A stretch of 27,509 nucleotides of DNA from Gammaproteobacteria bacterium (GCA_041572715.1 JBFFRZ010000001.1:1-27509); one strand, 5' to 3'. Positions 1 through 19,476 are shown, counted from the stretch's first letter. The notes: a model not told the origin generated them from the sequence alone. Numbers and translations are program-made.

Positions 1-1
1 C

Positions 2-463
2 ATGGTAACCATGGTAATTGGCCTTCTTAATCCAGCCACGGGGGAGTTAAGGCTGGCATCGGCCGGACATCCCCCATCAATACTGATTGAACAAAATCAT
101 GACATAACGGAACTGGATCAGTCCGGTATTCCCATCGGTATAGATACCCACACCGAATACCGGGAAAGCTGCCTGAGACTCAATCCCGACACAACGTTAT
201 TATTGTATTCTGATGGCCTGACCGAATGTGTAAATTCACAGGGCGAACATTTCGGAAGGGAGGCTTTGATTGGAGCGGTTAACTATGCAAGCGCTAGGCG
301 TGAAACCGATCTGCTTTCGCACATAGAATTGGAAGTCGACAACTGGCGCGGGCATACTGCCTTGAGAGATGACCTGTCCATGCTGGCAATCACATATACG
401 GGCCAGTACTCCGTTCAACACCAGGACACCCACACATTCGCGTCATCGGGTAAATACCAATGA
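2..463 (+). CDS. SpoIIE/RsbU-family PP2C serine phosphatase, C-terminal part (5' end probably outside the window)
   Basis: Motifs ASAGHPP, LLLYSDGLTE and RDDLSMLAI typical of the SpoIIE domain; the frame is open from the window edge; ATGA overlap with the next gene. Confidence 0.92.
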   Translation: MVTMVIGLLNPATGELRLASAGHPPSILIEQNHDITELDQSGIPIGIDTHTEYRESCLRLNPDTTLLLYSDGLTECVNSQGEHFGREALIGAVNYASARRETDLLSHIELEVDNWRGHTALRDDLSMLAITYTGQYSVQHQDTHTFASSGKYQ

Positions 464-858
464 ACACTGCCTATATGAAGCTTCGCAGCGATGCAGTGGA
501 AGTCACACGTGTACCCGCATGGCTGGATGATGCACTGGCCGGCTGTTCGATGGATGAAATGTCCAGGACTCGTCTGCGCTACGCGCTTATTGAAGTAGTT
601 AACAATTGTATTGAACACGCATATCAGTGCGATCCCTCGGGTGAAATTGTAATCACGTGCTCGGTTGAACATGAACGTATCAGCCTGAGGATTGAAGATC
701 ATGGACAACCATTGGATAAGCTTCCCAATGACGATGCCTTTGATCCGATGGATGAATCCGGCCGCGGGCTCAAAATAATTCGTGCCTGGGTGGATGAATT
801 CGCCATTGAACGTGAACAAGAAAAAAACATTACCCGCCTTGCCATGCATCTGAATTAA
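460..858 (+). CDS. RsbW/SpoIIAB-like anti-sigma factor serine kinase (HATPase_c_2)
   Basis: N-box EVVNNCIEHAY, IEDHG and ESGRGLKII boxes; lies between a PP2C gene and a STAS gene. Confidence 0.92.
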   Translation: MNTAYMKLRSDAVEVTRVPAWLDDALAGCSMDEMSRTRLRYALIEVVNNCIEHAYQCDPSGEIVITCSVEHERISLRIEDHGQPLDKLPNDDAFDPMDESGRGLKIIRAWVDEFAIEREQEKNITRLAMHLN

Positions 859-871
859 CAAAGGCAATCAG

Positions 872-929
872 CTCGCAAATTGCATAACAGTTTTTCAATT
901 TGCGAAAATCGCTTTTCCCATTTTGCAAA
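872..929 (+). promoter_or_regulatory. Three imperfect inverted-repeat boxes; probable enhancer for a sigma-54 activator
   Basis: CTCGCA-AAT-TGCATA (872), TTTTCA-ATT-TGCGAA (892) and TTCCCA-TTT-TGCAAA (915), 100-140 bp upstream of a sigma-54 site; the 20/23 bp spacing is repeated at 8627-8684. Confidence 0.7.
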
Positions 930-971
930 TCCCTGGCCAAGCCCAGCAAAAAAACGTTCCTCGATAATCCG

Positions 972-984
972 CATCCCTCTGATT
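972..984 (-). promoter_or_regulatory. Possible IHF site
   Basis: AATCAG-AGGG-ATG on the minus strand, one mismatch to WATCAR-N4-TTR, between enhancer and promoter; equivalent site at 8726-8738. Confidence 0.3.
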
Positions 985-1013
985 TTGCGGGCTTTTTAAT
1001 TATCTCAGAAAAC

Positions 1014-1029
1014 TGGCACAGCCCTTGCT
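1014..1029 (+). promoter_or_regulatory. Sigma-54 (RpoN) -24/-12 promoter
   Basis: TGGCAC-AGCCC-TTGCT matches TGGCAC-N5-TTGCW, 62 bp upstream of the STAS ATG. Confidence 0.88.
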
Positions 1030-1075
1030 CTAGTAGCTGTACAAGCAATACCAAACCGCCAATGGAGTAATTGAA

Positions 1076-1414
1076 ATGTCACTGCAACACACGACCGAAG
1101 ACAACGTAGAACTTGTCACTCTGCCAAGGCAGCTACTGATGGCTGACGCACCTCATGCCAGGAATGATCTGCTACGCATAGCAAACAAGCAGCATCCGAG
1201 GGTAGTCATGGACATGTCCCAGCTCGAATATATAGATTCGAGTGGCCTGGCCGTGCTGGTCAGCTGCCTGCAAAAAACCCGTCGCAATAGCGGTGAGCTA
1301 TGCCTGTTTGGCGTAAGCGATACCGTTCGCGTTCTGCTCGATCTAACCCGTCTTAACGATGTCTTGCCCATCGCTGAGAAGAAAGACGATGCCATCGAAA
1401 GGGTGCTCTCATGA
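1076..1414 (+). CDS. STAS-domain anti-sigma factor antagonist (SpoIIAA/RsbV/SypA-like)
   Basis: VVMDMSQLEYIDSSGLAVL with the conserved phospho-acceptor Ser (Ser56); GGAG Shine-Dalgarno upstream. Confidence 0.95.
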   Translation: MSLQHTTEDNVELVTLPRQLLMADAPHARNDLLRIANKQHPRVVMDMSQLEYIDSSGLAVLVSCLQKTRRNSGELCLFGVSDTVRVLLDLTRLNDVLPIAEKKDDAIERVLS

Positions 1415-2634
1415 ATACCATACCTCGCGAAAACAATACCGATGCTGGCAATAGCAAAAAGGCCGGGGCGCTGTCGCTGATGGTGTTCATCGACGCACTG
1501 GGCTGGGAAGTTCTCAGAGACAGAAAATTCATGCAAGAGGAATTACCGCATCGTCGCAAGTTGCGCTCGGTATTCGGTTTCTCTTCAGCCTGCGTGCCAT
1601 CAATCCTGACGGGAAAGACCCCGCGTGATCATGGCCACTGGTCCTATTTTTACTATTCACCTCAAAGCTCCCCTTTTGGCCTGTTGAAACTGCTTCGGCT
1701 ATTGCCCAAAAAGCTCACTGACCGTGGCCGTGTACGCCACTTGATCAGTCGCCTGCTGGGCAAGCTGTTTGGATTTACCGGGTATTTTCAGATCTATAAC
1801 CTGCCATTCAGCCACGCCGGTCTGTTTGACTATTGCGAAAAAAACGACATCTTCAAGCCCGGCGGCATGAATAAAGGTGACAACATCTTTGACGTGCTGG
1901 AAAACAATAATGTCAATTACCATGTTTCCGACTGGCGCAAATCGGAAGAGGAGAACCTGAAATCCTGCCATGACGCCATCACCGCGGCCGATGCGCGTTT
2001 TGCATTTCTCTACATGGCATCCATGGACAGCCTGTTACATCAAGTCGGCAAGCATAGCCCGAAAGTGGATACCAAGCTCGCCTGGTATGAACAACAGTTG
2101 CATGACCTGCTTGCCCATGCCCGCGAACACTATGATGAAGTTCGCCTGTTCGTCTGTTCGGACCACGGCATGGCGACCGTCGAACAGGATATTGACCTGA
2201 TGACCAGTATCGAGTCACTGCCACTGACATACGGCGAGGATTATGTCGCTGTTTACGATTCCACCATGGCTCGCTTCTGGTTTCATAATTACAGGGCCAG
2301 AAACCTGATTCGCGAGACTCTGTCTGCTCAGGAAGATGGCCGCATACTTGGTGATAAGGAACTGGCTCAACTCGGGTGTGATTTTGAAGGCAAACAGTTT
2401 GGTGAAATGATTTACCTGCTGGATCCAGGCAAGATCATCGTTCCCAGCCATATGGGGTTGAAAACCATCACTGGTATGCATGGCTATCACCCTGATCACC
2501 CGGATTCTGATGCGGCCCTGTTAGCCAACGTTGAAACAGAGCTGCCGGTTAACAGCCTAACCGACCTTTTTGACCTGATGAGCTATGAAGCAGGCGTAAT
2601 GACAGACATCAGTCTGGAAAAAGCATGCGCCTGA
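1411..2634 (+). CDS. Alkaline phosphatase superfamily protein (nucleotide pyrophosphatase/phosphodiesterase-like), no signal peptide
   Basis: Metal-ligand and nucleophile motifs FIDALG, GFSSACVPSILTG, MDSLLH, CSDHGM and GMHGY. Confidence 0.85.
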   Translation: MNTIPRENNTDAGNSKKAGALSLMVFIDALGWEVLRDRKFMQEELPHRRKLRSVFGFSSACVPSILTGKTPRDHGHWSYFYYSPQSSPFGLLKLLRLLPKKLTDRGRVRHLISRLLGKLFGFTGYFQIYNLPFSHAGLFDYCEKNDIFKPGGMNKGDNIFDVLENNNVNYHVSDWRKSEEENLKSCHDAITAADARFAFLYMASMDSLLHQVGKHSPKVDTKLAWYEQQLHDLLAHAREHYDEVRLFVCSDHGMATVEQDIDLMTSIESLPLTYGEDYVAVYDSTMARFWFHNYRARNLIRETLSAQEDGRILGDKELAQLGCDFEGKQFGEMIYLLDPGKIIVPSHMGLKTITGMHGYHPDHPDSDAALLANVETELPVNSLTDLFDLMSYEAGVMTDISLEKACA

Positions 2635-4163
2635 TCATTAACATCGCAAGCAGTTATTTCCGTTTCCTGGCCAGTATCGTGGTCGTGGTCATGCTGACCC
2701 CCTACATCCTGGAACAGATTGGAATAGACCGCTTCGGGCTCTGGTCATTATGTCTTGCTTCGGCTGGCGTGCTGGCGCTGCTGGATATGGGGTTGAGCAC
2801 AGCAACCGTGAAGTATGTCGCGGAACGCACGGGCAACGGTGACCATCGAGCTCGAAATGAAGCACTGTCCAGCCTGATGGTGGTTTATTCCGCACTCGGG
2901 ATTATCTGCGCGACAACGGTTTTCCTGGTCGCTGAACAGGTCGTTTCTTTGCTGGACCTTGCGGATCAGGACGCTAGCGATTACGTCTTCGCCATGCAGA
3001 TTATCGGCCTGTGCCTGGCATTTGCGCTGCCACTCACTTTATTTAAAACCATGCTGGTGGGTGCCGGGCGATTCGACATGGTTAATGTTGCCGAGATCAT
3101 TGGCGTCGTCCTCAACGCAGTCCTCATAATCCTAATGCTTGAACTGGGCCTGGATATATACGGATTGGCCATTGCCTATGCCAGCATACTGGTAGCAGTG
3201 CCACTGATGCTGGCGCCGATAGCCTTTCGCATACTGCCTGAACTGACGATTAAACCGGCGCTGCTGCGCTGGGAAAGACTGCGTGAATTATTACCCATGG
3301 CCTTTTACTTTCTGCTGGCCAACATCGCCATGTTGCTGATCCTGCGTAGCGATGTCCTTATTATCAAGTCCTTCCTGCCACTCACCGCGGTTGCCGCGTT
3401 TGCGATAGCCGCCCGTATTGGTGAATACGCCTATTTACTCAACAAGCAATTTTCCAATGCCATTATGCCACTGATTTCACAGTCTAACGGCAGCGGCGAC
3501 CGGCATACCGTCAGGGCCAGCCTGGTAGACGCAACCAGGATATTGGCCGGGATTGCCACTATGCTCATCGGGCTGGGAATTTTTCATGCAGAAACACTGG
3601 TGGTTATCTGGGTTGGAGAGGACCTGCTCGATGCGGCGCTGCCTTTACGTATCATCCTGCTGGCTGTCCTGTTCTCAACATTACACATGAACGCTTCCAA
3701 CGTGCTGGGCATGTCGGGCGGCCATCGCGGTGTCGCCGGGATCATGCTCGCTTCAGCCGCGGTGCATGTGCTGTTATCCCTCATGTTGATTCCGGAATTC
3801 GGCATCATCGGTGCCGCGCTGGCCATGCTGATTTCGGCAGTGCTGGTCGAGTTCGGATTGCTATTACCCCTTGCCTGCAAACAGCAGGGTGTAAGGCTCG
3901 GCGAAGTATTCACTGACCTTGTTCCTTGTTTCATTGCTGCCATTCCGATGTTACTGGTAGCCGATATACTCGGCCATCTTATGCCTGCCTCCAGCCTGTT
4001 GATACTGCTGGTGCAAAGCGCAGTTGCAGCGAGTGTATTCATCATAATCTTCATCACGATTGGCCTGACCCGTATGGAACGAAAATTTATCCATGACTTC
4101 GCTATGCGCGTCAAGTCTCGTAGCCAATCATTGCCACTGACAGAGGAGACTACTCATGCGTAG
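2625..4163 (+). CDS. Wzx-like oligosaccharide flippase
   Basis: About 12-14 hydrophobic segments; N-terminal [18 protein letters not shown] pattern; EPS gene context. Confidence 0.88.
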
Positions 4164-4821
4164 TTTAAGAAAGGCCTTGCGTCGGTATGCTTCCGCTCCA
4201 CGTATGTTCTACTGGCAAAAGCGCCTGGCAACACTGGGTAGTGAATGTGATTTACAACCCGGCTCGGTTTTTGAATATCCCGCTAACATTCATATTGGTC
4301 AGGCATGCCGTATTGCAAGACACGCTCTGCTGAGAGCCAATACCAGCAAGCATCCAGGCATCACATTGGGTAACCGTGTGTCACTGCTGGAAAACACACT
4401 GCTCAACGCCAATAACGGCAGCATATCTATCGATGACCGCAGCTGGCTGGGGCCATTCTCACTGATTTATGGCAATGGCGGAGTAAGTATTGGCAAGGAT
4501 GTCATGATTGCAAGCCACTGCGCGATCAATACCGTGTCTCACCATTCCGGTGACACCAGCAGACCCATGAGTGATCAAGATATTTATACGGCCCCTGTAA
4601 CTATTGAGGACGATGTATGGCTAGGGATCGGTTCTATCATCCTGCAGGGAGTGCGTGTCGGCAAAGGCAGCATCATCGGTGCCGGCGCAGTCGTTACCCA
4701 TGATATACCGCCCTGGTCCGTCGCCGTTGGAACACCGGCAAAAGTCATTCGCAAACGAGATTTCGAATCAGTCAACAACGTTACTGACCTGCAACCTCGG
4801 GCAGTTTCAGTACAGGCGTAA
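4156..4821 (+). CDS. Hexapeptide-repeat (LbH) O-acyltransferase
   Basis: [52 protein letters not shown] signature. Confidence 0.92.
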
Positions 4822-4825
4822 CGAC

Positions 4826-6121
4826 ATGTCACCCACAATACAGACAGCGAATAATGAACCAGTGAATGACATGTATGACCAAAAACCTGACTCACTGCAT
4901 GTTATCCAGGTGCCAAGACGATTTGTTGCCAATGAGTGGGGCGGTACAGAAACCATGATTCTTGAATCGAGCCGTGCTTTGACCAGGTCAGGACACCGGT
5001 GTGAAATACATACAACCACTGCACTTTGCGATAACCCGCATGAAAACCTCAACGGTGTTGAAGTATTTCGCCATAACTATACCTATCCATTTTTTGGATT
5101 GAGTGATGACGCGCGGCTCGACATGGACAGGAAGGGAGGCAACATTCTTTCATTATCCATGCTGCGTAATCTATTAAAAACACCTGGTGTTGACGTGTTT
5201 CATGCGCATAGCGGCAAACGCCTGGGTGGCATTGTAAGAACCGCCGCACGACGCAGGGGTTTGCCTTATGTGATTACCCTGCATGGCGGCATGTTCAAGA
5301 TACCCGAGCAGGAGATGGAACAAATGCTTTCGCCTTTGCAGGGAACACTCGAATGGGGGCGCGTTTTTGGTGCCATGCTGGGGGCACGTCGCGTGCTCGA
5401 TGATGCAGATGCGATCATTTGTGTTGGCCAGGATGAACAACAGGCGGTTCAGTCGCGCTACCCGCACAAGCGTGTTGATTGGGTGCCGAACGGCGTAGAC
5501 GTCAGACGCTTCGAAAATGGTGACGGCAAAGGCTTTCGCGCTGCTCATAACATAGCGGAGCATGCGCCTGTACTGCTGTGTGTCAGTCGTATTGATTACC
5601 AGAAAAACCAGCTGCTACTGGTTGATGCACTGGCCAGGCTGATTGAGACACACAGGGACCTGCACCTGGTCATTATGGGTCCGGTTACTGTTGCATCCTA
5701 TGAGCAGAAACTGAAAGCAAGAATCGATGACCTTGGATTACACGATCACGTAACCATACTTGAGGGGCAACCCGCGGGTAGCCAGGAACTCGTCAATGCA
5801 TACCATGCAGCAGACGTATTCTGCCTGCCTTCGCTGCATGAGCCATTTGGCATCGTCATCCTGGAAGCCTGGGCAGCAGGCTTACCGGTAGTTGCCTCCG
5901 GTATAGGTGGTATCCCTTCATTTACAGAAAACGAAACCAATATCCTGCATGCAGATCCTTCTGATACGAACACATTCGTGACCGCTATCGATCGCCTGCT
6001 GGCCGACCACGAATACGCCAAAAGCCTGGCCGATAATGGCAAGACAAAAGCGGCGACAGATTACGACTGGTCGCAGGTAGCCAGCCGACTCGAATCCATT
6101 TACCTGGATGTCAGGAGATAG
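4826..6121 (+). CDS. Glycosyltransferase family 4
   Basis: WGGTE N-terminal motif, SRIDYQKN, and E-x7-E (HEPFGIVILEA); the start at 4826 avoids a long overlap with the upstream gene. Confidence 0.92.
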   Translation: MSPTIQTANNEPVNDMYDQKPDSLHVIQVPRRFVANEWGGTETMILESSRALTRSGHRCEIHTTTALCDNPHENLNGVEVFRHNYTYPFFGLSDDARLDMDRKGGNILSLSMLRNLLKTPGVDVFHAHSGKRLGGIVRTAARRRGLPYVITLHGGMFKIPEQEMEQMLSPLQGTLEWGRVFGAMLGARRVLDDADAIICVGQDEQQAVQSRYPHKRVDWVPNGVDVRRFENGDGKGFRAAHNIAEHAPVLLCVSRIDYQKNQLLLVDALARLIETHRDLHLVIMGPVTVASYEQKLKARIDDLGLHDHVTILEGQPAGSQELVNAYHAADVFCLPSLHEPFGIVILEAWAAGLPVVASGIGGIPSFTENETNILHADPSDTNTFVTAIDRLLADHEYAKSLADNGKTKAATDYDWSQVASRLESIYLDVRR

Positions 6122-6125
6122 TGCA

Positions 6126-7265
6126 ATGAGAATCCTGCATGTACATGAGAATGCGCACTTTCACGGTGGTGTTGAACAAATATTGTTTGATACGGCACGC
6201 GGTCTTTCTGCAAATGGCTGGGAGCAGGCACTGCTGTATCAGAACCGGGATAGTGATGACAATTTTAAACAGGCATTCGACATGACTGCATCGGATAGCT
6301 CGATTATCGACGAGTTTGATCCAGATGCGGTCCTGGTGCACAAGGTGTCGGATGCCGGGCTGATCAGCTCACTAACGAACAAAAAGCCGACTGCACAAAT
6401 GGTGCATGATCACGATATCGTTTGCCCGCGTTCACACAAATACTTTCCGATCAGCCACAAGGTATGCACAAAACCGGCAGGTCTTTCCTGTTATCAGCAC
6501 CTCTGCTGTATACAACGAAACAGGAGCGACTCACTTCTGCCGATCACGCTCAAGGGAACCGGCGATGTCAGAAAACAGATTAGCGCAGGTGAAGGCCTCA
6601 GACGCTACCTTGCCAACAGCCAGTTCATGAAGGATGAACTGGTAATGAATGGCATCGATGCCGAACGCATCAATGTCATACACCCGGTACCCTTTGCCCT
6701 GATCTCCCCCGCTTTTCAACCCGTCGAAGATAATCGCGAAATTCTCTATGTTGGCCAGGTGATCCGTGGCAAGGGCGTAGACCTGTTATTAAAGGCACTC
6801 GTGCATTTAACAGGTGACTGGCATACCACCATCGTCGGTGATGGCAACCACATGAATGAATGCAGGCAGCTTGCTGCCAGGCTGGGTATTGAATCCAGGG
6901 TTACATTCGCGGGTCGTGTACCACATGAAGAGCTGGAGAGCTTTTACCATGCCGCACGCGTTGTTGTCGTGCCATCTCGCTGGCCCGAGCCATTTGGCAT
7001 GGTTGGTATAGAAGCCATGGCAAGAGGCAGACCCGTCGTGGCTTTTGACAATGGTGGGATATCAGACTGGCTCAGGCATGAATCCACTGGCATGTTGGTT
7101 ACCAACGGAGACCTGCAATCAATGGCTATGGCAATTGGTGGCTTTCTCGATAACAGGAATATGGCCGAGCAGTTTGGTCGCAACGGTGTTGCAAGAGTCG
7201 AACAATTTTTTTCACACGCTTCTTACCTGGACAGGATGAAGCAGGAAATGGAAGGTATTTTATGA
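6126..7265 (+). CDS. Glycosyltransferase family 4
   Basis: MRILHV...GGVE, GQVIRGKG and PEPFGMVGIEA; AGGAG Shine-Dalgarno at 6113-6117 supports the 6126 start. Confidence 0.92.
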   Translation: MRILHVHENAHFHGGVEQILFDTARGLSANGWEQALLYQNRDSDDNFKQAFDMTASDSSIIDEFDPDAVLVHKVSDAGLISSLTNKKPTAQMVHDHDIVCPRSHKYFPISHKVCTKPAGLSCYQHLCCIQRNRSDSLLPITLKGTGDVRKQISAGEGLRRYLANSQFMKDELVMNGIDAERINVIHPVPFALISPAFQPVEDNREILYVGQVIRGKGVDLLLKALVHLTGDWHTTIVGDGNHMNECRQLAARLGIESRVTFAGRVPHEELESFYHAARVVVVPSRWPEPFGMVGIEAMARGRPVVAFDNGGISDWLRHESTGMLVTNGDLQSMAMAIGGFLDNRNMAEQFGRNGVARVEQFFSHASYLDRMKQEMEGIL

Positions 7266-8431
7266 AAGTAGGCATATCAGCATTTGCAGGTGATGGCGGA
7301 AAGTCCGGAATTAGCCAGTACATGAAACACATATTCAAGCGGTTGCCAGGGCTGTCTGAAGAGGACGAGTATGTTCTGTTCATGTCAAAGAGTGACCGGA
7401 ACTTCTTCGAGCTGGATCATCCGCGGGTGAAAATCGTTACGGTTGCCGACTGGGTGTCAAAACCGGTGATCAATATTCTCTGGCATGCTCTGATCCTGCC
7501 ACTGGCACTGGCGCGTCATCAATGCGATATCGTATTCATGCCAGCAGCCAACCGCAGACTCTCATGGTGGTACGGAATACCCAGTGTGGGAACGGTGCAT
7601 GATCTTTCCCAGTTGCACATACCCGGCAAATACGATGCCTTTCGGATGGTTTATGCAACCCGGCTGCTCCCGGCAATGATGCGCAAACTGACACATGTGA
7701 TTTCTGTAAGTCACTCTACGCGCAGGGACCTGACCAATCATGCACATGTCGATGATGCCTCCATTGAAGTCGTCTATAACGGCGCCGACCTTGATCGCTA
7801 TTCGCCCACTCTGCGCACAAAAGGCCAGAAACTGGCGCGTCAGAAATACGGGATCGAGGGACCATACATTCTATATACCGCAAGACTGGAACATCCCGGG
7901 AAAAACCATGTAGGCCTGTTGAAAGCCTTTGCCGATCTTAAGCAGAAAACGGGCATCCCGCATAAGCTGGTGTTGTCCGGAAGCCCATGGTATGGAGCGG
8001 ATACGATCTACGCAGCTGCCCATGAGTACGGGATCGAGGATTCCGTCTACTTCACCGGCTTTGTAGCCGATGAGGATCTGCCCCGACTTTATGCCGGTGC
8101 CGACCTGTTTGCCTTCCCGTCCCTATTCGAGGGATTTGGTATTCCGTTACTGGAGGCAATGGCCGCCGGCACGCCGGTTTGCGCTTCCCGCGTGGCCAGC
8201 ATGCCCGAGGTTGTGCGTGATGCAGGCTTATTGTTTGATCCGGAAAATACTGAGGCCATCGCTGACAGTCTGCAGATGCTGATTGAAGACCAGGCCTTGC
8301 GCAAACAGCTGGTACAAAAAGGCTTGCGCCAGGCAAAACTGTTCAGCTGGGATGATGCCGCCAGGCAGACACATGCCGTGTTAAACCTGGTAAACGCCGA
8401 AAATAGCCACGCAGTAGCCAACTGCAGATAG
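7262..8431 (+). CDS. Glycosyltransferase family 4 (mannosyltransferase-like subgroup)
   Basis: SGISQY, TVHDL, ARLEHPGKN and FPSLFEGFGIPLLEAMAAG; ATGA overlap with the upstream gene. Confidence 0.93.
   Translation: MKVGISAFAGDGGKSGISQYMKHIFKRLPGLSEEDEYVLFMSKSDRNFFELDHPRVKIVTVADWVSKPVINILWHALILPLALARHQCDIVFMPAANRRLSWWYGIPSVGTVHDLSQLHIPGKYDAFRMVYATRLLPAMMRKLTHVISVSHSTRRDLTNHAHVDDASIEVVYNGADLDRYSPTLRTKGQKLARQKYGIEGPYILYTARLEHPGKNHVGLLKAFADLKQKTGIPHKLVLSGSPWYGADTIYAAAHEYGIEDSVYFTGFVADEDLPRLYAGADLFAFPSLFEGFGIPLLEAMAAGTPVCASRVASMPEVVRDAGLLFDPENTEAIADSLQMLIEDQALRKQLVQKGLRQAKLFSWDDAARQTHAVLNLVNAENSHAVANCR
7922..8113 (+). repeat. Segment of the GT4 gene duplicated at 8855-9046
   Basis: 64 ungapped codons; 33 of 192 nt differ by manual count (~83% identity). 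Confidence 0.95.
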
Positions 8432-8445
8432 GTCAGGAGGCCGGT

Positions 8446-8602
8446 ATAGCTTCAGCCAGCAACACAGAAATTACAAGCACCATACTGACACATGGGTAGC
8501 CATCCTTTTCTATGCGTTATTGCTTGGCACGTTGAAACAGAAGATCAAGCTGATTATTGCGCGAACACGATTGAGCTGCGTTTCAAGAGTATCCTGACCA
8601 TG
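8446..8602 (+). pseudogene. Decayed 5' fragment of the downstream ExeA-like ATPase gene
   Basis: ATAGCTTCAGCCAGCAACACA vs ATGTCTTCAGCCATTAACACT (16/21). Both start 14 nt after a GT stop codon. Further collinear anchors: SHPF/SRPF, GTTATTGCTTGGCA/GTTATTACCCGGCA, EDQA/HEQA and FKSILTM/FQERNLGM. Confidence 0.7.
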
Positions 8603-8626
8603 CATCTGAATTTATAAGGCAATTAT

Positions 8627-8684
8627 TTCGCAAATTGCTTAATAGATTCTCAATTTGCAAAAAACGAAATTCTCAATTTGCAAA
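8627..8684 (+). promoter_or_regulatory. Three enhancer-like boxes
   Basis: TTCGCA-AAT-TGCTTA (8627) and TTCTCA-ATT-TGCAAA twice (8647, 8670); the 16-mer ATTCTCAATTTGCAAA is repeated exactly with a 23 bp period. Confidence 0.75.
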
Positions 8685-8767
8685 CCAGTTGGAAATCCCT
8701 GCCGATGTAACCCTAAATATTCCTGCATCTGATTGATTTTATGGGCTTTTTAATTACTTCGGAAAAC

Positions 8768-8783
8768 TGGCACAGCCCTTGCT
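8768..8783 (+). promoter_or_regulatory. Sigma-54 -24/-12 promoter (duplicate)
   Basis: TGGCAC-AGCCC-TTGCT, identical to 1014-1029. Confidence 0.85.
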
Positions 8784-8827
8784 CTGGTGTATATACAAGT
8801 AACACCAAACCACTGAGAGTAATTGAT

Positions 8828-9103
8828 ATGTCATCGCAACACATGACCGTAGACAAAGCCTTTGCCGATCTGAAACAAAAAACGGGAATCCCGCACAAGC
8901 TGGCGTTGTCCGGGAGCCCCGGGTATGGAACCGATACGACTTACGCGGCTGCCCATGAATACGGGGTCGAGGATTGCGTGCGCTTCACGGGCTTTGTGTC
9001 CGACAAGAGTCTATCCGAACTTTATGCCGGTGCTGACCTGTTTGCGCTTCTCGTGCGATCTGCAGACGGGGTTGTCCGCGATGCAATAGCCAACCGCAGA
9101 TAA
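8828..9103 (+). pseudogene. Chimeric relic ORF (91 aa): STAS N-terminus fused to an internally deleted GT4 C-terminal fragment
   Basis: MSSQHMTVD resembles STAS MSLQHTTED; KAFADLKQKTGIPHKL...YAGADLFA, VVRDA and ANRR* match the GT4 at 7262; the E-x7-E motif is deleted. Confidence 0.85.
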
Positions 9104-9117
9104 GCAAGTACTACAAC

Positions 9118-10023
9118 ATGTCTTCAGCCATTAACACTTCCCCTAATAACACCGTTACGCGGCTGCGCAACAGGGAAATACCCCTGGCCATGCTGGCATC
9201 CCGACCTTTCGAGCTCGTCCGGGACACTCGCTGTTATTACCCGGCAGAGGAACATGAACAAGCATATGCTGCCATGAATTATCTCTTCCAGGAAAGAAAC
9301 CTGGGCATGGGCCAATTAACCGGTGATGCAGGTACCGGCAAAACACTCATCAGGACGCTGCTGTTCAACACGCTCGATCCACAGCGTTATGTCAGGGTCA
9401 GTATTGAAAACTCTTTGCTTGATTTTGACGGTATGTTACTTGAAATCATTAGCCAGATCCGCCGTGTGCGTGTCACTTCACAGGAACTGGCCGATCGCTA
9501 TAGCCGCCTGTCGACATTCAAGCAACTATTACGTACTCACGTTGAATCCAGTGGGAAACACCTGGCCATTTTTATCGACGAAGCCCAGGACATGGATGTG
9601 ACCACTCTCAAGAACGTTACAGCATTAACCAATATCTCAATGGAACACCAGCAGCTGCTAACCATAGCTTTCTTTGCGTCTGCAGACGTTGGTGCGATCA
9701 CCAGTCATATCCCCGGCATAGACCAGCGCATCGCCATCAAAAAGAGACTGGCCAGCCTGCCCCGGCAAGCCCAGGACGACTACGTCGCACACAGATTAAA
9801 ACTGTCAGGCTGGGATCAACCCCTGCCATTTAGCACCGAGATTCTTGATCACATGTATGAAACAGCAAAGGGCAATCCAAGAATTATCAATGTGATCTTT
9901 AACCATGCGATTAGGTTTGCACAGGATAATGCGCAGGGTCTTGATAACATCAGTCTTGATCATGCCATCAACTTGTATACGCATAATCGATCCGGGCATG
10001 AGACTGCGGGCATGTTGTTATAA
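9118..10023 (+). CDS. ExeA/GspA-like AAA+ ATPase (similar in type to ATPases of PEP-CTERM/EPS loci)
   Basis: RPF motif, Walker A GDAGTGKT, Walker B IFIDEAQD, DQRI and GNPRIIN motifs. Confidence 0.9.
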   Translation: MSSAINTSPNNTVTRLRNREIPLAMLASRPFELVRDTRCYYPAEEHEQAYAAMNYLFQERNLGMGQLTGDAGTGKTLIRTLLFNTLDPQRYVRVSIENSLLDFDGMLLEIISQIRRVRVTSQELADRYSRLSTFKQLLRTHVESSGKHLAIFIDEAQDMDVTTLKNVTALTNISMEHQQLLTIAFFASADVGAITSHIPGIDQRIAIKKRLASLPRQAQDDYVAHRLKLSGWDQPLPFSTEILDHMYETAKGNPRIINVIFNHAIRFAQDNAQGLDNISLDHAINLYTHNRSGHETAGMLL

Positions 10024-10035
10024 ACGGGCACACTG

Positions 10036-12267
10036 ATGAACGCTTCAAACGACATAGGGAAATATCAACCCGCCAGCGACAATCCGGAATGGGATGTTTC
10101 GCCGGCGACAACCAGCAACACGAATGCCGCTGGCACTTTTCACCCGGTAATGCCTGATATCGAGTACCAGGATACGGATGAGGCCGAAAATCAACTCAAC
10201 ATAGACATCCATCGGTATATAACCGGCATCTGGGAACGACGCTGGCAGTCGCTTGCAATCATGGTAACCGTGACTGGCCTCATCCTGATGTTCATTCTGT
10301 TTGGTATGTCCAGAAACTGGCAGGCCTCTACCACGCTGATTAAACGTGACCACCAGGATAACCTTACACTGGCCGAGCGTAACCCATTCAAATTTCAGGA
10401 ATACAACCTGTCAACACTGCTTGATACGTTAAAGTTACCCAGCTCACTGGACCGGATAAGACAGAAAGCAAATCTTGGTGTCAGCCTGACCACCCTGGCC
10501 ACCGCCATAGATGTTGCTATCGGAAAAGATTCCAAGATCATCAATATCAAGATGACATGGGACGACTCAGATATGGCCGCAAAACTTGCCAACCTGGTTT
10601 CACAGACGTTTATTGACCGCACCCGTCGCCTGCTGCGCGATGATGCCAAAGCCGCACACGAATACTATAGCGCTCAGCTCAGTACCACCAGGGACCAGGC
10701 CGGAAAGCTTGCGGCGCGTGTCATGGAGTTCAAGCAGAAAAACAATATTTCAGATCTGGACACCGAAACCAAAGTAATACTCGAAGAGATGTCCCGGCTT
10801 CAGGGCGAATACAATTCCCGAATCGCGGAGGCAGATGCATTACGTGAAGCAAAGATACGACTGCAAGAGGCTCTTGTCGATGAGCCTGACAAGGTAATTA
10901 CCTACACGATCTTTCGCAGCCCGCTTAAATCCCGTCTCGCAGAGTATGAATGGGAACTGCGAGATGCCCTCAGTAAATACACAGAAAAGAATCCGAAGGT
11001 AATAAAGCTCCGCGAACGCATCGATGCGCTCAGCAAGCTGATTGAGCAAAGCAAAGATGAACAGGTTCCAGAAAACACCTACACCAATAATACCAAGCGT
11101 GAAGAAATGGAACTTCGCCAGCAGGAACTGGCCGACGAAATCCAGATGCGAGAGGCACAGGCCAAGGCACTGAACAATACGCTGGGCGAAATGAAAAACA
11201 AGCTATCCGTCCTTGGAGCATGGGACAGGGATTACCTGATGTTGAAAACCCAGCTTGATGGAATGCTTGATCTTGAAAATCACCTGGCGCGACGCGTTGA
11301 AGAGACACGACTGGCAATGCAACGCAATGACGCGATATTCGATGTGGTTGAATACGCCATCCCGCCGGTAGACCCTTTACCTTCCGGTAGAAGACTACTG
11401 GCCATTGCTGCATTGTTTATGGGACTGATGAGTGGTTTTCTTTATGCAATATCAAGAGAATTCCTGGACCCATTCATTCGCTCGTCGCGCGACCTGGACA
11501 AGCTGGTATCGTCAGATGCCATACTTGAAGTGGCACATGATAAAGAGCAAGTACCTGTCATCGATGTCAACAATCCGATCAGCCCACTTGCGAATCGCTA
11601 TAGAAGCTTTGTCAATGAGATTGACGCAATCGATCCGGCGGACAAATATGCCCCTATCGCCATACTCAGCCTGGAGCCTGGATCGGGCAGATCTGCCGCA
11701 GCTGCAAATCTGGCATTGACCCGATCAATAAAGGGGCAAAAGATCCTGTTGCTTGATGCAGATCTAAGAGCCAACGCTGGCCGCCGTCCAGACACTAAAC
11801 TTGACATGACGAAACAGCAGGTGCCTGGATTATATGAATACCTCACGCAAGGCACAGAACCAGTCGCTCAACAGGATGACACAGCACATATCAGCGTCAT
11901 CAATGCAGGCGCAGATATCAAGGACAGTAGTGGCCTGCTCAAGCTCGGCCAGGTAAACCTCAAGGCCCTCATATCAAGGCACTTCCATGACAGTTTTTCT
12001 TTCATTGAGCTTCCGCCAGCACTGGGGCTTGAAGTATCACTGGAACAGGCATCGCTGATTGGTCGCGCCATTATTGTTACAAGAAGCGGCCACACGCGCC
12101 GAAAAGATATCAAGCAGTATCTGGATCAACTGCAAAAAAGAGGCATCAATTGTCTCGGCATGATTGTCAATGACGTCGCACCAGCACGCATGTCTATCAG
12201 CAATGAACTTAACGAATCGAATTATCACAAATATCAATATTCATACGAGGTTTCCGCCAATGCTTAA
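10036..12267 (+). CDS. Wzc/GumC-like polysaccharide co-polymerase with degenerate BY-kinase domain
   Basis: Two TM segments flanking a long coiled-coil region; C-terminal PGSGRS...NLA, LLLDADLR, IELPP and a Tyr-rich tail NYHKYQYSY. Confidence 0.88.
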   Translation: MNASNDIGKYQPASDNPEWDVSPATTSNTNAAGTFHPVMPDIEYQDTDEAENQLNIDIHRYITGIWERRWQSLAIMVTVTGLILMFILFGMSRNWQASTTLIKRDHQDNLTLAERNPFKFQEYNLSTLLDTLKLPSSLDRIRQKANLGVSLTTLATAIDVAIGKDSKIINIKMTWDDSDMAAKLANLVSQTFIDRTRRLLRDDAKAAHEYYSAQLSTTRDQAGKLAARVMEFKQKNNISDLDTETKVILEEMSRLQGEYNSRIAEADALREAKIRLQEALVDEPDKVITYTIFRSPLKSRLAEYEWELRDALSKYTEKNPKVIKLRERIDALSKLIEQSKDEQVPENTYTNNTKREEMELRQQELADEIQMREAQAKALNNTLGEMKNKLSVLGAWDRDYLMLKTQLDGMLDLENHLARRVEETRLAMQRNDAIFDVVEYAIPPVDPLPSGRRLLAIAALFMGLMSGFLYAISREFLDPFIRSSRDLDKLVSSDAILEVAHDKEQVPVIDVNNPISPLANRYRSFVNEIDAIDPADKYAPIAILSLEPGSGRSAAAANLALTRSIKGQKILLLDADLRANAGRRPDTKLDMTKQQVPGLYEYLTQGTEPVAQQDDTAHISVINAGADIKDSSGLLKLGQVNLKALISRHFHDSFSFIELPPALGLEVSLEQASLIGRAIIVTRSGHTRRKDIKQYLDQLQKRGINCLGMIVNDVAPARMSISNELNESNYHKYQYSYEVSANA

Positions 12268-13309
12268 CATACGTCATACCTTATTAACACTAGCTATTAC
12301 CGTCTTTTTGAATGGCTGTATCACTGTACCAAGCTTCAACAATGACGTCAGCCAGGAACAGGTGCCCGTCATCCAGCAGACTGCAAATAATGTAGAGGTA
12401 ACTCAACCTGTGCGGTCTTCAGAGGATCAGCTGAAGGAACTGGAGCGACTGAAAAAAAGCCAGCAGAATGTACCAACATTGGGGCGTGGAGATATTCTCA
12501 ATGTATCGGTATATGATGAACCCGATTTGACTATCAGGGGCATCCCAGTTCGACCTGATGGGAAAATTTCGTTTCCACTTGTTGGCGATGTTCAAGCCGA
12601 AGGTCTTACAGTTGCAGATCTGGCAGATACACTGACAAAAAGGCTGGCGCAATACATGCTGGCACCTAAAGTATCCGTAATCGTCCAGGAGTTTAACAGC
12701 CAGCAATACACAATATTCGGCGAGGTGGTTAAACCCGGTGTATATCCTCTTAAAACAAATGTCAGCATAACCGATGCACTTGCATCAGCTGGTGGATTAA
12801 ACAAGGGACAGTTTCGAGCTACATCTGTGGAACTGGCTGACCTCACCCATGCCTATATAGCGCGTGATGGCCAGGTACTACCAGTGGATTTTGTCAAGCT
12901 GATACGGCAGGGAGATTTACGCTACAACGTCTCGCTTCAGGCCGGTGATTACATCTATATACCTTCTGGCCTGGCCAAGGAAGTATACATACTGGGTGAA
13001 GTCAGGAAGCCGATGCTGTTCGCCTTCCGGGAGAATATGCCGATGTCGCGCACGCTGGCACAGGCGGAAGGATTCACCCCTGATGCGGACCTGAGTCGCA
13101 TCCATATACTTCGCGGTGCATTGCATAACCCGACTATCATCGAGATAGATTTTAAAGAGGTACTGAAAGGGAACGCTCGCGAGATTGCACTGCAAGCCGG
13201 TGATGTCATTTATGTGCCGCCTACCGGGCTGACCTCGTTTTCTCGTATGATGAGCAAGATTCTGCCAACAATCAGCGCGCTGCAAGGTAATCTTTTTACT
13301 TCAAGTTAA
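12260..13309 (+). CDS. wza: Wza-like outer-membrane polysaccharide export lipoprotein
   Basis: Lipobox FLNGC; Poly_export motif GDILNVSV...VRPDGKISFPLVG; SLBB repeats; C-terminal amphipathic helix; GAGG upstream of the 12260 ATG. Confidence 0.9.
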   Translation: MLNIRHTLLTLAITVFLNGCITVPSFNNDVSQEQVPVIQQTANNVEVTQPVRSSEDQLKELERLKKSQQNVPTLGRGDILNVSVYDEPDLTIRGIPVRPDGKISFPLVGDVQAEGLTVADLADTLTKRLAQYMLAPKVSVIVQEFNSQQYTIFGEVVKPGVYPLKTNVSITDALASAGGLNKGQFRATSVELADLTHAYIARDGQVLPVDFVKLIRQGDLRYNVSLQAGDYIYIPSGLAKEVYILGEVRKPMLFAFRENMPMSRTLAQAEGFTPDADLSRIHILRGALHNPTIIEIDFKEVLKGNAREIALQAGDVIYVPPTGLTSFSRMMSKILPTISALQGNLFTSS

Positions 13310-13330
13310 CCCAATACTATCGGCCTCCAT

Positions 13331-16807: not shown

Positions 16808-17686
16808 TCAAGCGCCGGCAAGCGCAAGCTGCCCATGTTTTAGTCCGCGCCATCTTGCCCATTTCTGCACAAACCTGAGTGGCACACTATGTATCACTGC
16901 ATCCAGTGATCGTGTGCTGAGCGCCCAGCGCACGTCACGGACGATCTCCATCAGGAATGGCAACAGAAAGGTCCTCGGCCATCGTTGGTCCATCTCACCC
17001 CGCCTGAAAATCCAGGCATCAGCAGTTCCCTCACCAAAGTGACGCCGGTAGGACTGCTTCAGGCTGTAATTATGCGAATGCATGGCCGCAGCCTTTGCAA
17101 CATAATGTATACGATAGCCATCGAGGCGCAGACGATAGGACCATTCGATATCCTCCGAGTACTGGATGTTCGTTTCAAAGGGATAGCGCGCCAGAACGCT
17201 GCGACGGGCAGCAGAATTTGCCATGGAAAAGAAGTGAACCCAGCGAGCTGCCTCGGAACCATCACCAAAAGCGCGCTCGGTATCCTTGATAAACAAGCTC
17301 CTGCAATCCTGGCGTGCCACCTGCCTGCCATAAACTGCGCCAATACCAGGATCATCAAGTGGGCGAATGAGGTTTTCCAGCCAACGCTCGTCAGTTGGCG
17401 TTGCATCGGAGTTCAGGAAAACAATAATCTCTGATTCAACAGTACTGACTGCTTCATTCAACACTTTACCGGGATTGTAGGTTTTGGAGCTATTTAGTCG
17501 AATACGATCCGGGTGATTGAACTCGCGTATGATTTCAAGTGTTCCATCTGACGAAGTTGAATCAAAGTTCCATAACTGGTAATCCCGGTAAGTTTGCTTT
17601 TCCAGCATTTCAAGCGTCTGCCGAATAACAGACCGGTCATTGTATGAGCGCATGATAATGGCCACTTTGGGATTTTTACTTGGCAT
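16808..17686 (-). CDS. Glycosyltransferase family 2 (RfbN/rhamnosyltransferase-like)
   Basis: IIMRSYN, FDSTSSDGT, FLNSDA, SEDIEW and HSHNY motifs; GAGGA Shine-Dalgarno. Confidence 0.88.
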   Translation of the reverse strand: MPSKNPKVAIIMRSYNDRSVIRQTLEMLEKQTYRDYQLWNFDSTSSDGTLEIIREFNHPDRIRLNSSKTYNPGKVLNEAVSTVESEIIVFLNSDATPTDERWLENLIRPLDDPGIGAVYGRQVARQDCRSLFIKDTERAFGDGSEAARWVHFFSMANSAARRSVLARYPFETNIQYSEDIEWSYRLRLDGYRIHYVAKAAAMHSHNYSLKQSYRRHFGEGTADAWIFRRGEMDQRWPRTFLLPFLMEIVRDVRWALSTRSLDAVIHSVPLRFVQKWARWRGLKHGQLALAGA

Positions 17687-17722
17687 AATATTCCTCGTTT
17701 ATGTCCAGGGACCGATGTGGTC

Positions 17723-19252: not shown

Positions 19253-19298
19253 TTCCCATCCTGCGAATACAGAGGTGCGGACATATGCAAATTGCAAA
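19253..19298. promoter_or_regulatory. Enhancer-like boxes in the divergent intergenic region
   Basis: TTCCCA-TCC-TGCGAA (19253) and TATGCA-AAT-TGCAAA (19284), same pattern as upstream of 1014 and 8768. Confidence 0.6.
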
Positions 19299-19395
19299 TC
19301 ATTCTGCGAAGTCAGCGGACATTCAGCATATCTTTAAAGCGTGCACAGGCCTTTGGTCCAGGATTAAAAATAAGCCTGCAAGCGCCAAACCATAT

Positions 19396-19408
19396 TAACT
19401 GACTGATT
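19396..19408 (-). promoter_or_regulatory. IHF-like site
   Basis: AATCAG-TCAG-TTA matches WATCAR-N4-TTR, lies between the boxes and the 19461 promoter, next to an A/T tract. Confidence 0.45.
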
Positions 19409-19460
19409 TATAGTGTTTTTTTTAAAAATATCTGTGTGCCAATCCGCAGCATGTACAAGT

Positions 19461-19476
19461 TGGCACTGTTCTTGAT
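19461..19476 (+). promoter_or_regulatory. Sigma-54 promoter candidate
   Basis: TGGCAC-TGTTC-TTGAT: perfect -24, -12 reads GA instead of GC; 51 bp upstream of the ATG with AGGAG. Confidence 0.65.

Follow-up and report, generated by a model that had tools for sequence, protein, structure and literature searches.

Genes and mosaic at the locus

The window analysed here, i.e., the whole of a 27,509-nt stretch of DNA from an uncultured sediment gammaproteobacterium, carries a syp-like, sigma-54-controlled exopolysaccharide (EPS) operon for a biofilm polysaccharide (Table 1). Its Pfam domains comprise SpoIIE, HATPase_c_2, STAS, three GT4, MatE-like, Hexapep, AAA_22, Poly_export, Wzy_C and Bac_transf, which at the domain level only brings together a STAS protein (SypA), its cognate kinase/phosphatase and syp-like biosynthesis and export genes. 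The third glycosyltransferase gene, GT4c, is full length in orthologues at 99% and at 65–70% identity, and the ATPase gene is the first one downstream of promoter 2.

Table 1 Features around the mosaic, in window coordinates.
Feature	Position	Strand	Evidence and remarks
RsbW-like serine kinase gene	460–858	+	Pfam HATPase_c_2, E 2.4e-21
Enhancer (UAS) of promoter 1	873–928	+	Inverted repeat (10-nt arms, 13-nt spacer) and third box; SypG UAS-like motif in each of the three
Sigma-54 promoter 1 (-24 GG / -12 GC), upstream of STAS, ancestral	1014–1029	+	Exact consensus match
STAS gene (anti-sigma-antagonist, SypA-like)	1076–1414	+	Pfam STAS, E 2e-19; TIGR00377
GT4c, third GT4 glycosyltransferase, intact	7262–8431	+	Pfam Glycos_transf_1, E 4.6e-39
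Copy of GT4-stop/ATPase-start junction	8432–8480	+	Spacer with AGGAGG, dead ATPase start, ~7–12 recognisable codons
Stretch without assigned ancestry at the duplication junction, 112 nt	8481–8592	+	Decayed ATPase 5' DNA or filler possible
Copy of kinase 3' end including stop region	8593–8614	+	18/22 identical to 837–858
Enhancer (UAS) of promoter 2	8627–8684	+	Same inverted repeat; the published SypG UAS motif is perfect in two boxes
Sigma-54 promoter 2	8768–8783	+	16/16 identical to promoter 1; predicted transcription start near 8794
Chimeric 91-codon leader ORF	8828–9103	+	STAS start and 9 codons in frame with GT4c relic; translation
GT4c relic	8855–9103	+	Codons 221–283 83% identical (nt); further on, deletions of 70, 2 and 189 nt
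AAA_22 ATPase gene (ExeA-like, SypD-like)	9118–10023	+	Pfam AAA_22; TIGR03015 score under its cut-off
Rest of export unit	10036–15616	+	Wzc-like co-polymerase 10036–12267; Wza ~12260–13309; GH9 13331–15616; Pfam and NCBIfam

The 686 nt between GT4c and the ATPase gene (8432–9117) are a mosaic of other parts of the window, as a sequence-only reading of the DNA had proposed. Self-BLAST and a repeat search returned two strong matches. In one, 8593–8856 resembles 837–1104 (76% over 270 columns, E 5.6e-50; proposed as 8598–8856 and 842–1104) and contains the kinase 3' end, the enhancer, the sigma-54 promoter and the first 9 STAS codons; in the other, 8855–9054 resembles the GT4 interior at 7922–8120 (83%, E 5.6e-50), and the likeness then continues collinearly to the GT4 stop, in agreement with the GT4 pieces proposed for 8855–9103 and 7922–8431. 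A third, weaker match from self-BLAST joins 8406–8465 to 9078–9137 (70%, E 2e-4) and covers the GT4 3' end, the spacer and the first 20 nt of the ATPase gene; in the copy, the start codon ATG has given way to ATA at 8446. At its left edge the copied segment has the last ~22 nt of the kinase gene (837–858), where similarity to 8593–8614 starts at 837 with none upstream, and at its right edge it has STAS sequence up to 1104, with the ribosome-binding site and the first 9 codons. The relic derives from GT4c between codon 221 and the stop (7922–8431), and the STAS/GT4 junction is clean, with a microhomology of 2 nt only. Read in order, the segments are GT4 end and ATPase start, then kinase end, promoter and STAS start, then GT4 interior to stop and the ATPase gene, which is what a single duplication junction combined with a single deletion junction would produce. 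Elsewhere in the 2.53-Mb assembly we found no further copy of the mosaic segments.

Two predicted enhancer-dependent promoters

Both promoters match TGGCAC-N5-TTGCW (-24 GG / -12 GC) exactly. Promoter 1 is invariant in the orthologous clusters L208, L207 and L206, which also keep its enhancer boxes, and it is present in the deep relatives L060 and L063; in the orthologue of promoter 2 in L059, GG-N10-GC is kept with one spacer change. The exact inverted repeat occurs genome-wide only at 875–903 and 8630–8658, with arms identical at 19 of 20 positions between the copies, against 7 of 13 in the spacer that separates them. From the third box to the -24 element there are 98 nt in copy 2 and 99 nt in copy 1, and the boxes of promoter 2 sit 85–140 nt upstream of -24, i.e., inside the range of ~80–150 bp set for such sites. 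The SypG UAS motif TTCTCA-N3-TGMDWN (PMC10162802) has 18 matches in the window (5.8 expected), clustered at three sigma-54 sites (892–928, 8627–8683 and 19253–19310); those at promoter 1 start at 892, 893 (minus strand) and 915.

The regulatory boxes were claimed to be better conserved than the DNA around them, and the counts bear this out: the -24/-12 element (16/16) and the enhancer boxes (28/30) of promoter 2 agree with copy 1 at 44 of 46 positions, compared with 114 of 172 (66%) outside them (Fisher p 1.3e-5). An enhancer-plus-promoter module, with three boxes and a -24/-12 element, is present ahead of ATPase-wzc-wza-GH9, as had also been read from the sequence.

The genome encodes RpoN (Sigma54_DBD, E 5.9e-71, contig C67) and at least eight enhancer-binding proteins, as judged from nine strong Sigma54_activat matches (E 1e-21 or better) of which one is cut by a contig end. 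Several are response regulators, and a search among these activators for the PrsR class, a regulator of PEP-CTERM boxes, gave no assignment above the cut-off. RNA-library contigs give the entire cluster an even coverage of ~5x with no ends and no start site, and may derive from carried-over DNA.

A chimeric leader in place of a glycosyltransferase

The offsets between the relic and its source step from 933 to 863, 861 and 672, which accounts for the three deletions, and the catalytic region has been lost, so that the relic is not a functional transferase. The 115–126-aa "glycosyltransferase" annotated in several assemblies is a relic or leader, and no enzyme. Changes specific to the relic are spread evenly over codon positions (7/5/9). 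The leader ORF, whose frame includes the compensated pair of deletions of 70 and 2 nt, ends at the GT4-type stop, and it is open in three lineages at lengths of 115 aa (P0154/L058), 91 aa (window) and 49 aa (L059). The deletions differ between the lineages, and the end always lies 14 nt before the ATPase ATG. No Shine-Dalgarno sequence was found in this 14-nt spacer (9104–9117). In both lineages, moreover, 2 nt are missing from the copied ribosome-binding site (GGAG to GAGAG).

These features raise the tentative idea, at present rather doubtful, that selection has kept a meaningless STAS::GT4 frame open, across separate in-frame and compensated deletions in three lineages, solely to bring ribosomes to an ATPase start that lacks a Shine-Dalgarno sequence, in which case a whole expression cassette (enhancer, sigma-54 promoter, ribosome-binding site and start codon) would have moved. 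In simulations a stop-free relic arose by chance with P 0.26–0.45 per lineage, which alone is weak evidence of selection. Since the shifted frame after the 70-nt deletion also stops near the ATPase gene, the case for selection on the open frame relies mainly on ~4 in-frame junctions and deletions. This case was made post hoc.

The duplication junction and its 112 nt

The DNA of the mosaic can be traced to two parental sites with the exception of 8481–8592. An ATPase relic had been proposed for 8446–8602 as a copy of 9118–9309; the first ~20–35 nt of it hold (the 70% match above), and beyond ~8480 six tests scored at or near noise, which leaves the reading of 8481–8592 as ATPase DNA unsupported. 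Local and global alignment of this stretch to ATPase DNA gave z 1.6–2.8, and frameshift-tolerant protein/DNA alignment gave z ~1. An nhmmer search with an ATPase 5' profile reached E 0.7 and covered 8442–8479 only, an N-terminal HMM of the ATPase family scored at the null level, and BLAST against the loci collected for comparison stayed at or near noise. The diagonal anchored at the proposed CATG junction showed 34.6% identity, a value equalled by 3 of 121 offsets. Descent from the kinase interior fared no better (z 0), and there was no significant match in the rest of the genome or in Rfam and no stable fold.

The live ATPase 5' end is 84–86% identical between lineages, i.e., it evolves at a normal rate, and the loss of the stub cannot be put down to a fast-changing live copy. 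The 112 nt are far more decayed than the other pieces which is at odds with a simple relic of the same age. As for the junction itself, which had been placed on a CATG shared by the kinase gene (843–846) and the ATPase gene (9306–9309), a CATG/CCTG microhomology is present at 8593–8602. It fits the kinase side at least equally well and thus does not prove an ATPase-side breakpoint; the one at 9306–9309 is unsupported.

Relatives from before and after the event

Syntenic relatives (L060/L061 and L063/L064) match the window in gene order (PP2C, kinase, STAS, phosphodiesterase, flippase in part, hexapeptide transferase, three GT4, ATPase, Wzc, Wza and GH9) and represent the unduplicated arrangement in outgroups: their only sigma-54 promoter lies upstream of STAS, and a GT4 gene is followed directly by the ATPase gene with gaps of 31–54 nt, the arrangement that the sequence-only reading had called on relatives to show. 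The export order ATPase-Wzc-Wza-GH9 is the same in L058, L059, L060 and L063. The ATPase gene is by far the most divergent gene between the syntenic clusters (35–38% aa identity).

The same STAS/GT4 junction is found in the L059 lineage (88%) and in the L058/P0154 lineage (95%), each with deletions of its own. The relatives thus come from before and after the event, and the latter are at successive stages of decay. Both lineages with the internal promoter also carry STAS and GT4 remnants; a promoter free of such remnants in relatives had been named as a finding that would speak against a duplication, together with missing collinear matches and reads that fail to span the mosaic, and none of these was observed. 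In the L208 lineage, the biosynthesis half is 82% identical at the nucleotide level, homology stops exactly at the GT4c stop, and the export module is distant and inverted; no residue of the mosaic was found downstream of its GT4c. Three-taxon counts place the event near the split from L208 and before the split of L059. A search of metagenome contigs with the 18-nt STAS/GT4 junction pattern returned 120 unrelated loci, none of them the mosaic; the pattern is too short.

Origin of the mosaic

On this evidence, the mosaic is probably the scar left when part of a syp-like sigma-54 EPS operon underwent segmental duplication long ago, with the result that a complete second regulatory module lies before the export genes. 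As the relatives show, the ancestor had one promoter upstream of STAS and GT4c directly before the ATPase gene. The new junction would have linked the ATPase gene, a short way past its start, to the final ~22 nt of the kinase gene. From the downstream copy, 6.8 kb (STAS codon 10 to GT4c codon 220) would have disappeared, whether afterwards or as part of one and the same template-switching event. Ahead of ATPase-Wzc-Wza-GH9 there remain three SypG-type boxes, the -24/-12 promoter, and the STAS ribosome-binding region with its start codon, which leads in frame into the GT4c tail. The enhancer-binding protein of promoter 1 would probably act on promoter 2 as well, and the export genes would therefore have a start of their own ~325 nt upstream of the ATPase gene in addition to read-through from promoter 1. 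Ribosomes on the leader would stop 14 nt before the ATPase start and may re-initiate there, which would preserve the ancestral translational coupling of GT4c and ATPase. The sequence-only reading had put forward a ~7.75-kb tandem duplication with reciprocal decay; its duplication scar, segment order and ancestral state are retained, and its full tandem intermediate is a presumed stage only, given that a single event with two template switches yields the same product. Its additional step, the loss of the ATPase gene from copy 1, is unnecessary, because copy 1 of a tandem duplication only ever holds the 5' stub.

A chimeric assembly might be suspected, since the window is a contig of a metagenome-assembled genome in which repeats could have been collapsed or mis-joined, and two related contigs (L058 and L059) break inside the mosaic. 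However, contigs from other samples (L065, L186 and L187) span GT4c, mosaic and ATPase gene at 99.8–99.9% identity, and those of two further samples (L188 and L189) include the promoter half of the mosaic and the ATPase start at 99.4–99.8%. Fourteen DNA runs from six studies contained 7900–9700 completely (all sampled words), and the junctions are common to diverged lineages. The mosaic is not an assembly artefact, and the chance that it is a chimera is negligible. Promoter 2 might also be real and dead, with the export genes served by read-through from promoter 1 only and the likeness of the boxes owed to limited age or gene conversion: no start is mapped there, one RNA-library contig runs across the promoter from upstream, the plus strand between GT4c and promoter 2 has no terminator-like site, and the GT4 relic shows hints of unequal rates or conversion (6 vs 22 lineage-specific changes). 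Yet the conserved islands are short and coincide with functional boxes, their spacers having diverged (as in the inverted repeat, and at 40–55% from the third box to ~-60), whereas conversion would act in tracts and make contiguous DNA uniform. Orthologous copies of promoter 1 keep the same islands, perfect SypG-motif boxes number two at promoter 2 and none at copy 1, and the L059 lineage retains the -24/-12 element beside a relic that has diverged by ~30%, all of which makes a dead promoter unlikely.

More weight can be given to an origin in one step, in which one replication error, switching template twice (from the ATPase 5' end back to the kinase 3' end, then from STAS codon 9 forward to GT4c codon 221), made the mosaic with no 7.75-kb tandem intermediate. 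Such an intermediate is indeed not seen, both junctions being common to all lineages, and a perfect direct repeat of that size would be unstable; the second junction is clean, and the ~112 nt of unassignable DNA at the first resemble template-switch filler. We nevertheless consider this route the less probable one, if a real contender, as the two-step route is open too, survival of an intermediate is expected in neither, and documented cases more commonly took the path of tandem duplication with subsequent deletion of genes made redundant (PMC6614815, PMC11111574). Alternatively, the downstream half (promoter 2, relic and ATPase to GH9) could have come by recombination from a related but distinct syp-like cluster, with copies that had diverged beforehand. 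The halves of the cluster are separable, as L208 demonstrates, copy 2 of the promoter region shares as many states with L208 (22) as with copy 1 of the window (18), and the divergence of the ATPase gene would fit a foreign source. In the GT4 region, however, the relic shares more derived states with GT4c of the window (17) than with L208 (7), relic and promoter 2 are far nearer to this lineage than to L060 or L063, and the dead ATPase start (8446–8465) resembles the present ATPase gene and no other type, so that a join of this kind is very unlikely. Duplication within the operon thus remains our preferred explanation.

Discussion

The locus resembles the syp locus of Vibrio fischeri, which consists of four sigma-54 operons, each activated by SypG via an upstream syp enhancer, according to the passages in which PMC10162802 and PMC4517449 cite Ray et al. 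2013. Both are EPS loci headed by a STAS gene under partner-switch control, have more than one sigma-54 promoter, each preceded by boxes of the SypG-UAS type, and share GT4s, flippase, acetyltransferase, ExeA-like ATPase, Wzc-like and Wza-like proteins, polymerase and priming transferase. They differ in gene order, and kinase and phosphatase are separate here but fused in SypE; moreover, no enhancer-binding protein of this genome is assignable as the SypG orthologue. The origin of the internal promoter can be read from scars here, whereas that of the syp promoters is unrecorded in the literature surveyed. The best NCBIfam matches of the ATPase, chain-length protein and Wza are to XrtA/PEP-CTERM EPS export (TIGR03015, TIGR03007 and TIGR03027), but all three score under the curated cut-offs (113 vs 324, 110 vs 279 and 156 vs 180 bits).

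The event also has the outline of promoter capture, in which direct duplication sets an existing promoter upstream of genes not previously adjacent, through junctions with little or no homology. The rnk-citT duplication of the E. coli long-term experiment is reportedly such a capture by tandem duplication. Under laboratory conditions the process has activated genes that were silent or had been transferred (PMC6614815, PMC11111574). In all these captures a foreign promoter is fused to a gene by the junction itself and the amplification is recent, whereas here the operon re-used its own enhancer-dependent promoter internally and lost the genes in between, through an old event that has become fixed in several lineages. 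A survey of promoter propagation and reuse in prokaryotes grouped promoters of high similarity, for most of which no mechanism could be read (PMC3575422); as in that survey, a promoter region occurs a second time in the genome before different genes, but in our case the mechanism is legible from the fragments of genes on either side, and enhancer sites and a translation start were copied along with the promoter.

The mosaic is thus a well-preserved natural example of a known mechanism of operon rewiring and no new kind of system. It provides a natural and datable record, with both junctions preserved, of a ~14-kb sigma-54 operon gaining an internal enhancer-dependent promoter, and with it two predictions: that transcription starts near 8794, and that translation of the ATPase depends on the leader frame. 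It also offers a concrete model for how multi-promoter loci of the syp type originate. If this reading is true and general, cassette duplication would be one way in which long enhancer-dependent EPS operons, among them the syp loci, are split into several co-regulated units.

Locus and gene content

The window makes up the entire length of C1, a contig in a metagenome-assembled genome of 2.53 Mb (351 contigs, 86% complete), and from its domain content, STAS-first layout and enhancer boxes we assign it to a putative syp-like exopolysaccharide locus, the likeness to syp loci being at the level of domain matches and of the SypG UAS motif (PMC10162802). The export proteins resemble XrtA/PEP-CTERM families, all below the curated cut-offs. 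With the ATPase as query, six species representatives of the same genus (G001-G006) gave no match at E 1e-20 or better, and judged in this way the cluster seems to be accessory in this genus.

Genes and regulatory features of the locus
Feature	Position	Strand
PP2C phosphatase (end)	2-463	+
RsbW-like kinase	460-858	+
Enhancer boxes, copy 1	873-928	
Promoter 1 (sigma-54)	1014-1029	
STAS gene	1076-1414	+
Alkaline-phosphatase-superfamily enzyme	after STAS gene	+
MatE-like flippase	after alkaline-phosphatase-superfamily enzyme	+
Hexapeptide transferase	after MatE-like flippase	+
Three GT4 glycosyltransferases, last (GT4c)	7262-8431	+
Mosaic	8432-9117	
Enhancer boxes, copy 2	8627-8684	
Promoter 2 (sigma-54)	8768-8783	
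AAA_22 ExeA-like ATPase	9118-10023	+
Wzc-like protein, Wza, GH9 hydrolase	after ATPase	+

Composition and occurrence of the mosaic

In a self-comparison of the window, 8593-8856 match 837-1104 (76%, E 5.6e-50), which runs from the 3' end of the kinase gene through the intergenic regulatory region to STAS codon 9, and 8855-9054 match 7922-8120 (83%, E 5.6e-50), that is, GT4c from codon 221; both matches had been claimed in an earlier sequence-only reading, and both are strong and collinear. The STAS-GT4 junction (8856/8857) is a clean join at which 2 nt of microhomology are present. From there the GT4 relic continues as far as a GT4-type stop (9101-9103), having lost 70, 2 and 189 nt in three deletions. 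Relic-specific changes fall evenly over the codon positions (7/5/9), the pattern expected of a pseudogene.

The ATPase relic that the same reading had placed ahead of these pieces held in part: the end of the GT4 gene, the spacer that follows and the ATPase gene's first 20 nt are present twice (8406-8465 against 9078-9137, 70%, E 2e-4), with the first-copy start changed to ATA (8446), but nothing is recoverable past ~8480. Six tests for ATPase ancestry of 8481-8592 all returned noise or near-noise, and the segment matched neither any other part of the genome nor Rfam and has no stable fold. It is an outlier, since the remaining relic pieces retain 66-83% identity to their sources and the 5' end of the live ATPase gene shows an ordinary rate of evolution; it is filler or else scrambled ATPase DNA. 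The dead ATPase start is preceded by a strong Shine-Dalgarno sequence, AGGAGG (8435-8440).

The mosaic is real. Contigs from other samples (L065, L186, L187) span GT4c, mosaic and ATPase at 99.8-99.9% identity, those from two further samples (L188, L189) cover its promoter half and the ATPase start, and every sampled word of 7900-9700 is present in 14 DNA runs from six studies (marine, estuarine and other sediments). The junction is common to diverged lineages: contig L059 (ATPase 88% aa), which begins at promoter 2, has a shorter GT4 relic behind the STAS start, and the L058/P0154 lineage (95%) has a longer relic with the 189-nt deletion only. The Wzc-like gene of L058 is called as two ORFs of 118 and 668 aa (L058:1233-1287, window ~10208-10230), with ~76 extra nt relative to the window, including a 23-nt repeat; the L058 assembly therefore has either a local duplication or a frameshift here. 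A strain variant in an RNA run (X15, record 7) differs at 14 positions, all in 8536-8743 and none in 8744-9317, sparing the core enhancer boxes; it may represent a recombinant strain, or the Logan contig may be chimeric.

Ancestral state, timing and origin

Two deeper syntenic relatives (GT4c 65-69% aa) share the PP2C-to-GH9 gene order of the window. Their ATPase directly follows GT4c (gaps of 31 and 54 nt), as the sequence-only reading had predicted for relatives, and their one sigma-54 promoter lies upstream of STAS, which supports an insertion derived in the window's lineage. In the deep relative L063, the RsbW-like kinase gene and the STAS promoter are separated by an inserted gene for a GAF-HisKA-receiver hybrid kinase, encoded on the opposite strand (L063:3096-4889). 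The ATPase (9118-10023 against L060:11190-12068 and L063:11249-12169) has diverged much more than any other gene of the syntenic clusters, at 35-38% aa compared with 50-72% for its neighbours.

A closer relative, L205/L208 (ENA ERZ23879989 NODE_43), is 82% identical over window 1-8430; homology stops exactly at the GT4c stop and restarts at a GT2 gene (window 16845-17696), and its export module is distant (34-51% aa), inverted and located behind dTDP-rhamnose (rml) genes (region L208:8561-18258). The cluster halves are therefore separable units, and in these clusters the biosynthesis half and the export half are swapped as modules. In three-taxon counts, the relic shares its state with the window's own copy at 17 positions and with L208 at 7 in the GT4 region, and copy 2 does so at 18 and 22, respectively, in the promoter region. 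Taken together with derived states common to copy 2 of L059 and of the window, these counts date the event to around the time when the window and L208 lineages separated, with L059 splitting off later.

Three routes yield one and the same product. We give an even chance to a tandem duplication followed by deletion, in line with the ~7.75 kb duplication with reciprocal decay originally proposed; a single event with a double template switch is rather unlikely, and a join with a related cluster improbable. The unassigned 112 nt at the first junction fit a decayed stub and, equally well, template-switch filler.

The copied promoter and its enhancer boxes

Promoter 2 is identical to promoter 1 at 16/16 positions and is preceded by an inverted repeat, with 10-nt arms around a spacer of 13 nt, and by a third box. 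In its exact form the repeat is confined, within the genome, to the two promoter modules. Copy 2 has two boxes that fit the SypG UAS motif, in the form quoted in PMC10162802, without a mismatch; with at most one mismatch the window contains 18 matches (5.8 expected), clustered at three sigma-54 sites. That the regulatory boxes are better kept than the surrounding DNA, as the initial reading held, is borne out by the non-coding parts of the two copies, where 44/46 box positions are identical compared with 114/172 elsewhere (Fisher p 1.3e-5). The box islands are also the conserved parts among promoter 1 orthologues (L208, L207, L206), in which sequence from the third box to about -60 varies freely.

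The third, sigma-54-like site (TGGCAC-N5-TTGAT, in which the -12 GC is replaced) is found 36 nt ahead of the ribosome-binding site of a WecG/Bac_transf priming transferase gene (19512; region 19253-19476), with SypG-motif-like boxes at 19253, 19285-19299 and 19297(-); apart from the boxes, it has no detectable similarity to promoters 1 and 2. An rpoN gene is present in the genome, along with genes for at least eight enhancer-binding proteins, none of which could be assigned to the locus as cognate activator. A small contig of the source genome carries an enhancer-like half-palindrome (C175:4604-4631, two mismatches to the inverted-repeat pattern) and a truncated enhancer-binding-protein gene (C175:3-209), together a possible lead to that activator.

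The leader ORF

From the copied STAS ATG (8828) the reading frame continues into the GT4 relic, which creates a 91-codon ORF ending 14 nt before the ATPase ATG, in front of a spacer that holds no Shine-Dalgarno sequence. A homologous ORF is open in three lineages, always with the same stop, at 115 aa in P0154/L058, 91 aa in the window lineage and 49 aa in L059. The open frame needs an in-frame fusion, an in-frame 189-nt deletion, the compensated -70/-2 pair of the window lineage and, for L059, a deletion of ~66 codons that also keeps the frame. By itself a stop-free frame is unremarkable (P 0.26-0.45), the peptide is not conserved (15/30 identical between window and L059) and two bases are missing from the copied ribosome-binding site; maintenance of the frame across about four independent junctions (roughly 0.01, post hoc) is suggestive. 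Selection for translation as far as the ATPase start, as translational coupling or leader protection, is possible if somewhat doubtful.

Proposed function and precedents

One activator would fire both promoters, and because of this the export genes would gain their own transcription start on top of read-through. No terminator-like site was found from GT4c to promoter 2, and RNA-library contigs, in which DNA carry-over is possible, cover the cluster evenly, one of them crossing promoter 2, and mark no start site. Multiple sigma-54/SypG promoters within a single syp locus (PMC10162802), promoter capture via tandem duplication (PMC6614815, PMC11111574) and promoter reuse (PMC3575422) are already known, and the duplicated module is a further example of a known mechanism; it differs from those cases of capture and reuse in being intra-operon and enhancer-dependent, with a captured translation start. 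It is also unusually legible, in that relatives record both the state before the event and the successive decay that followed.
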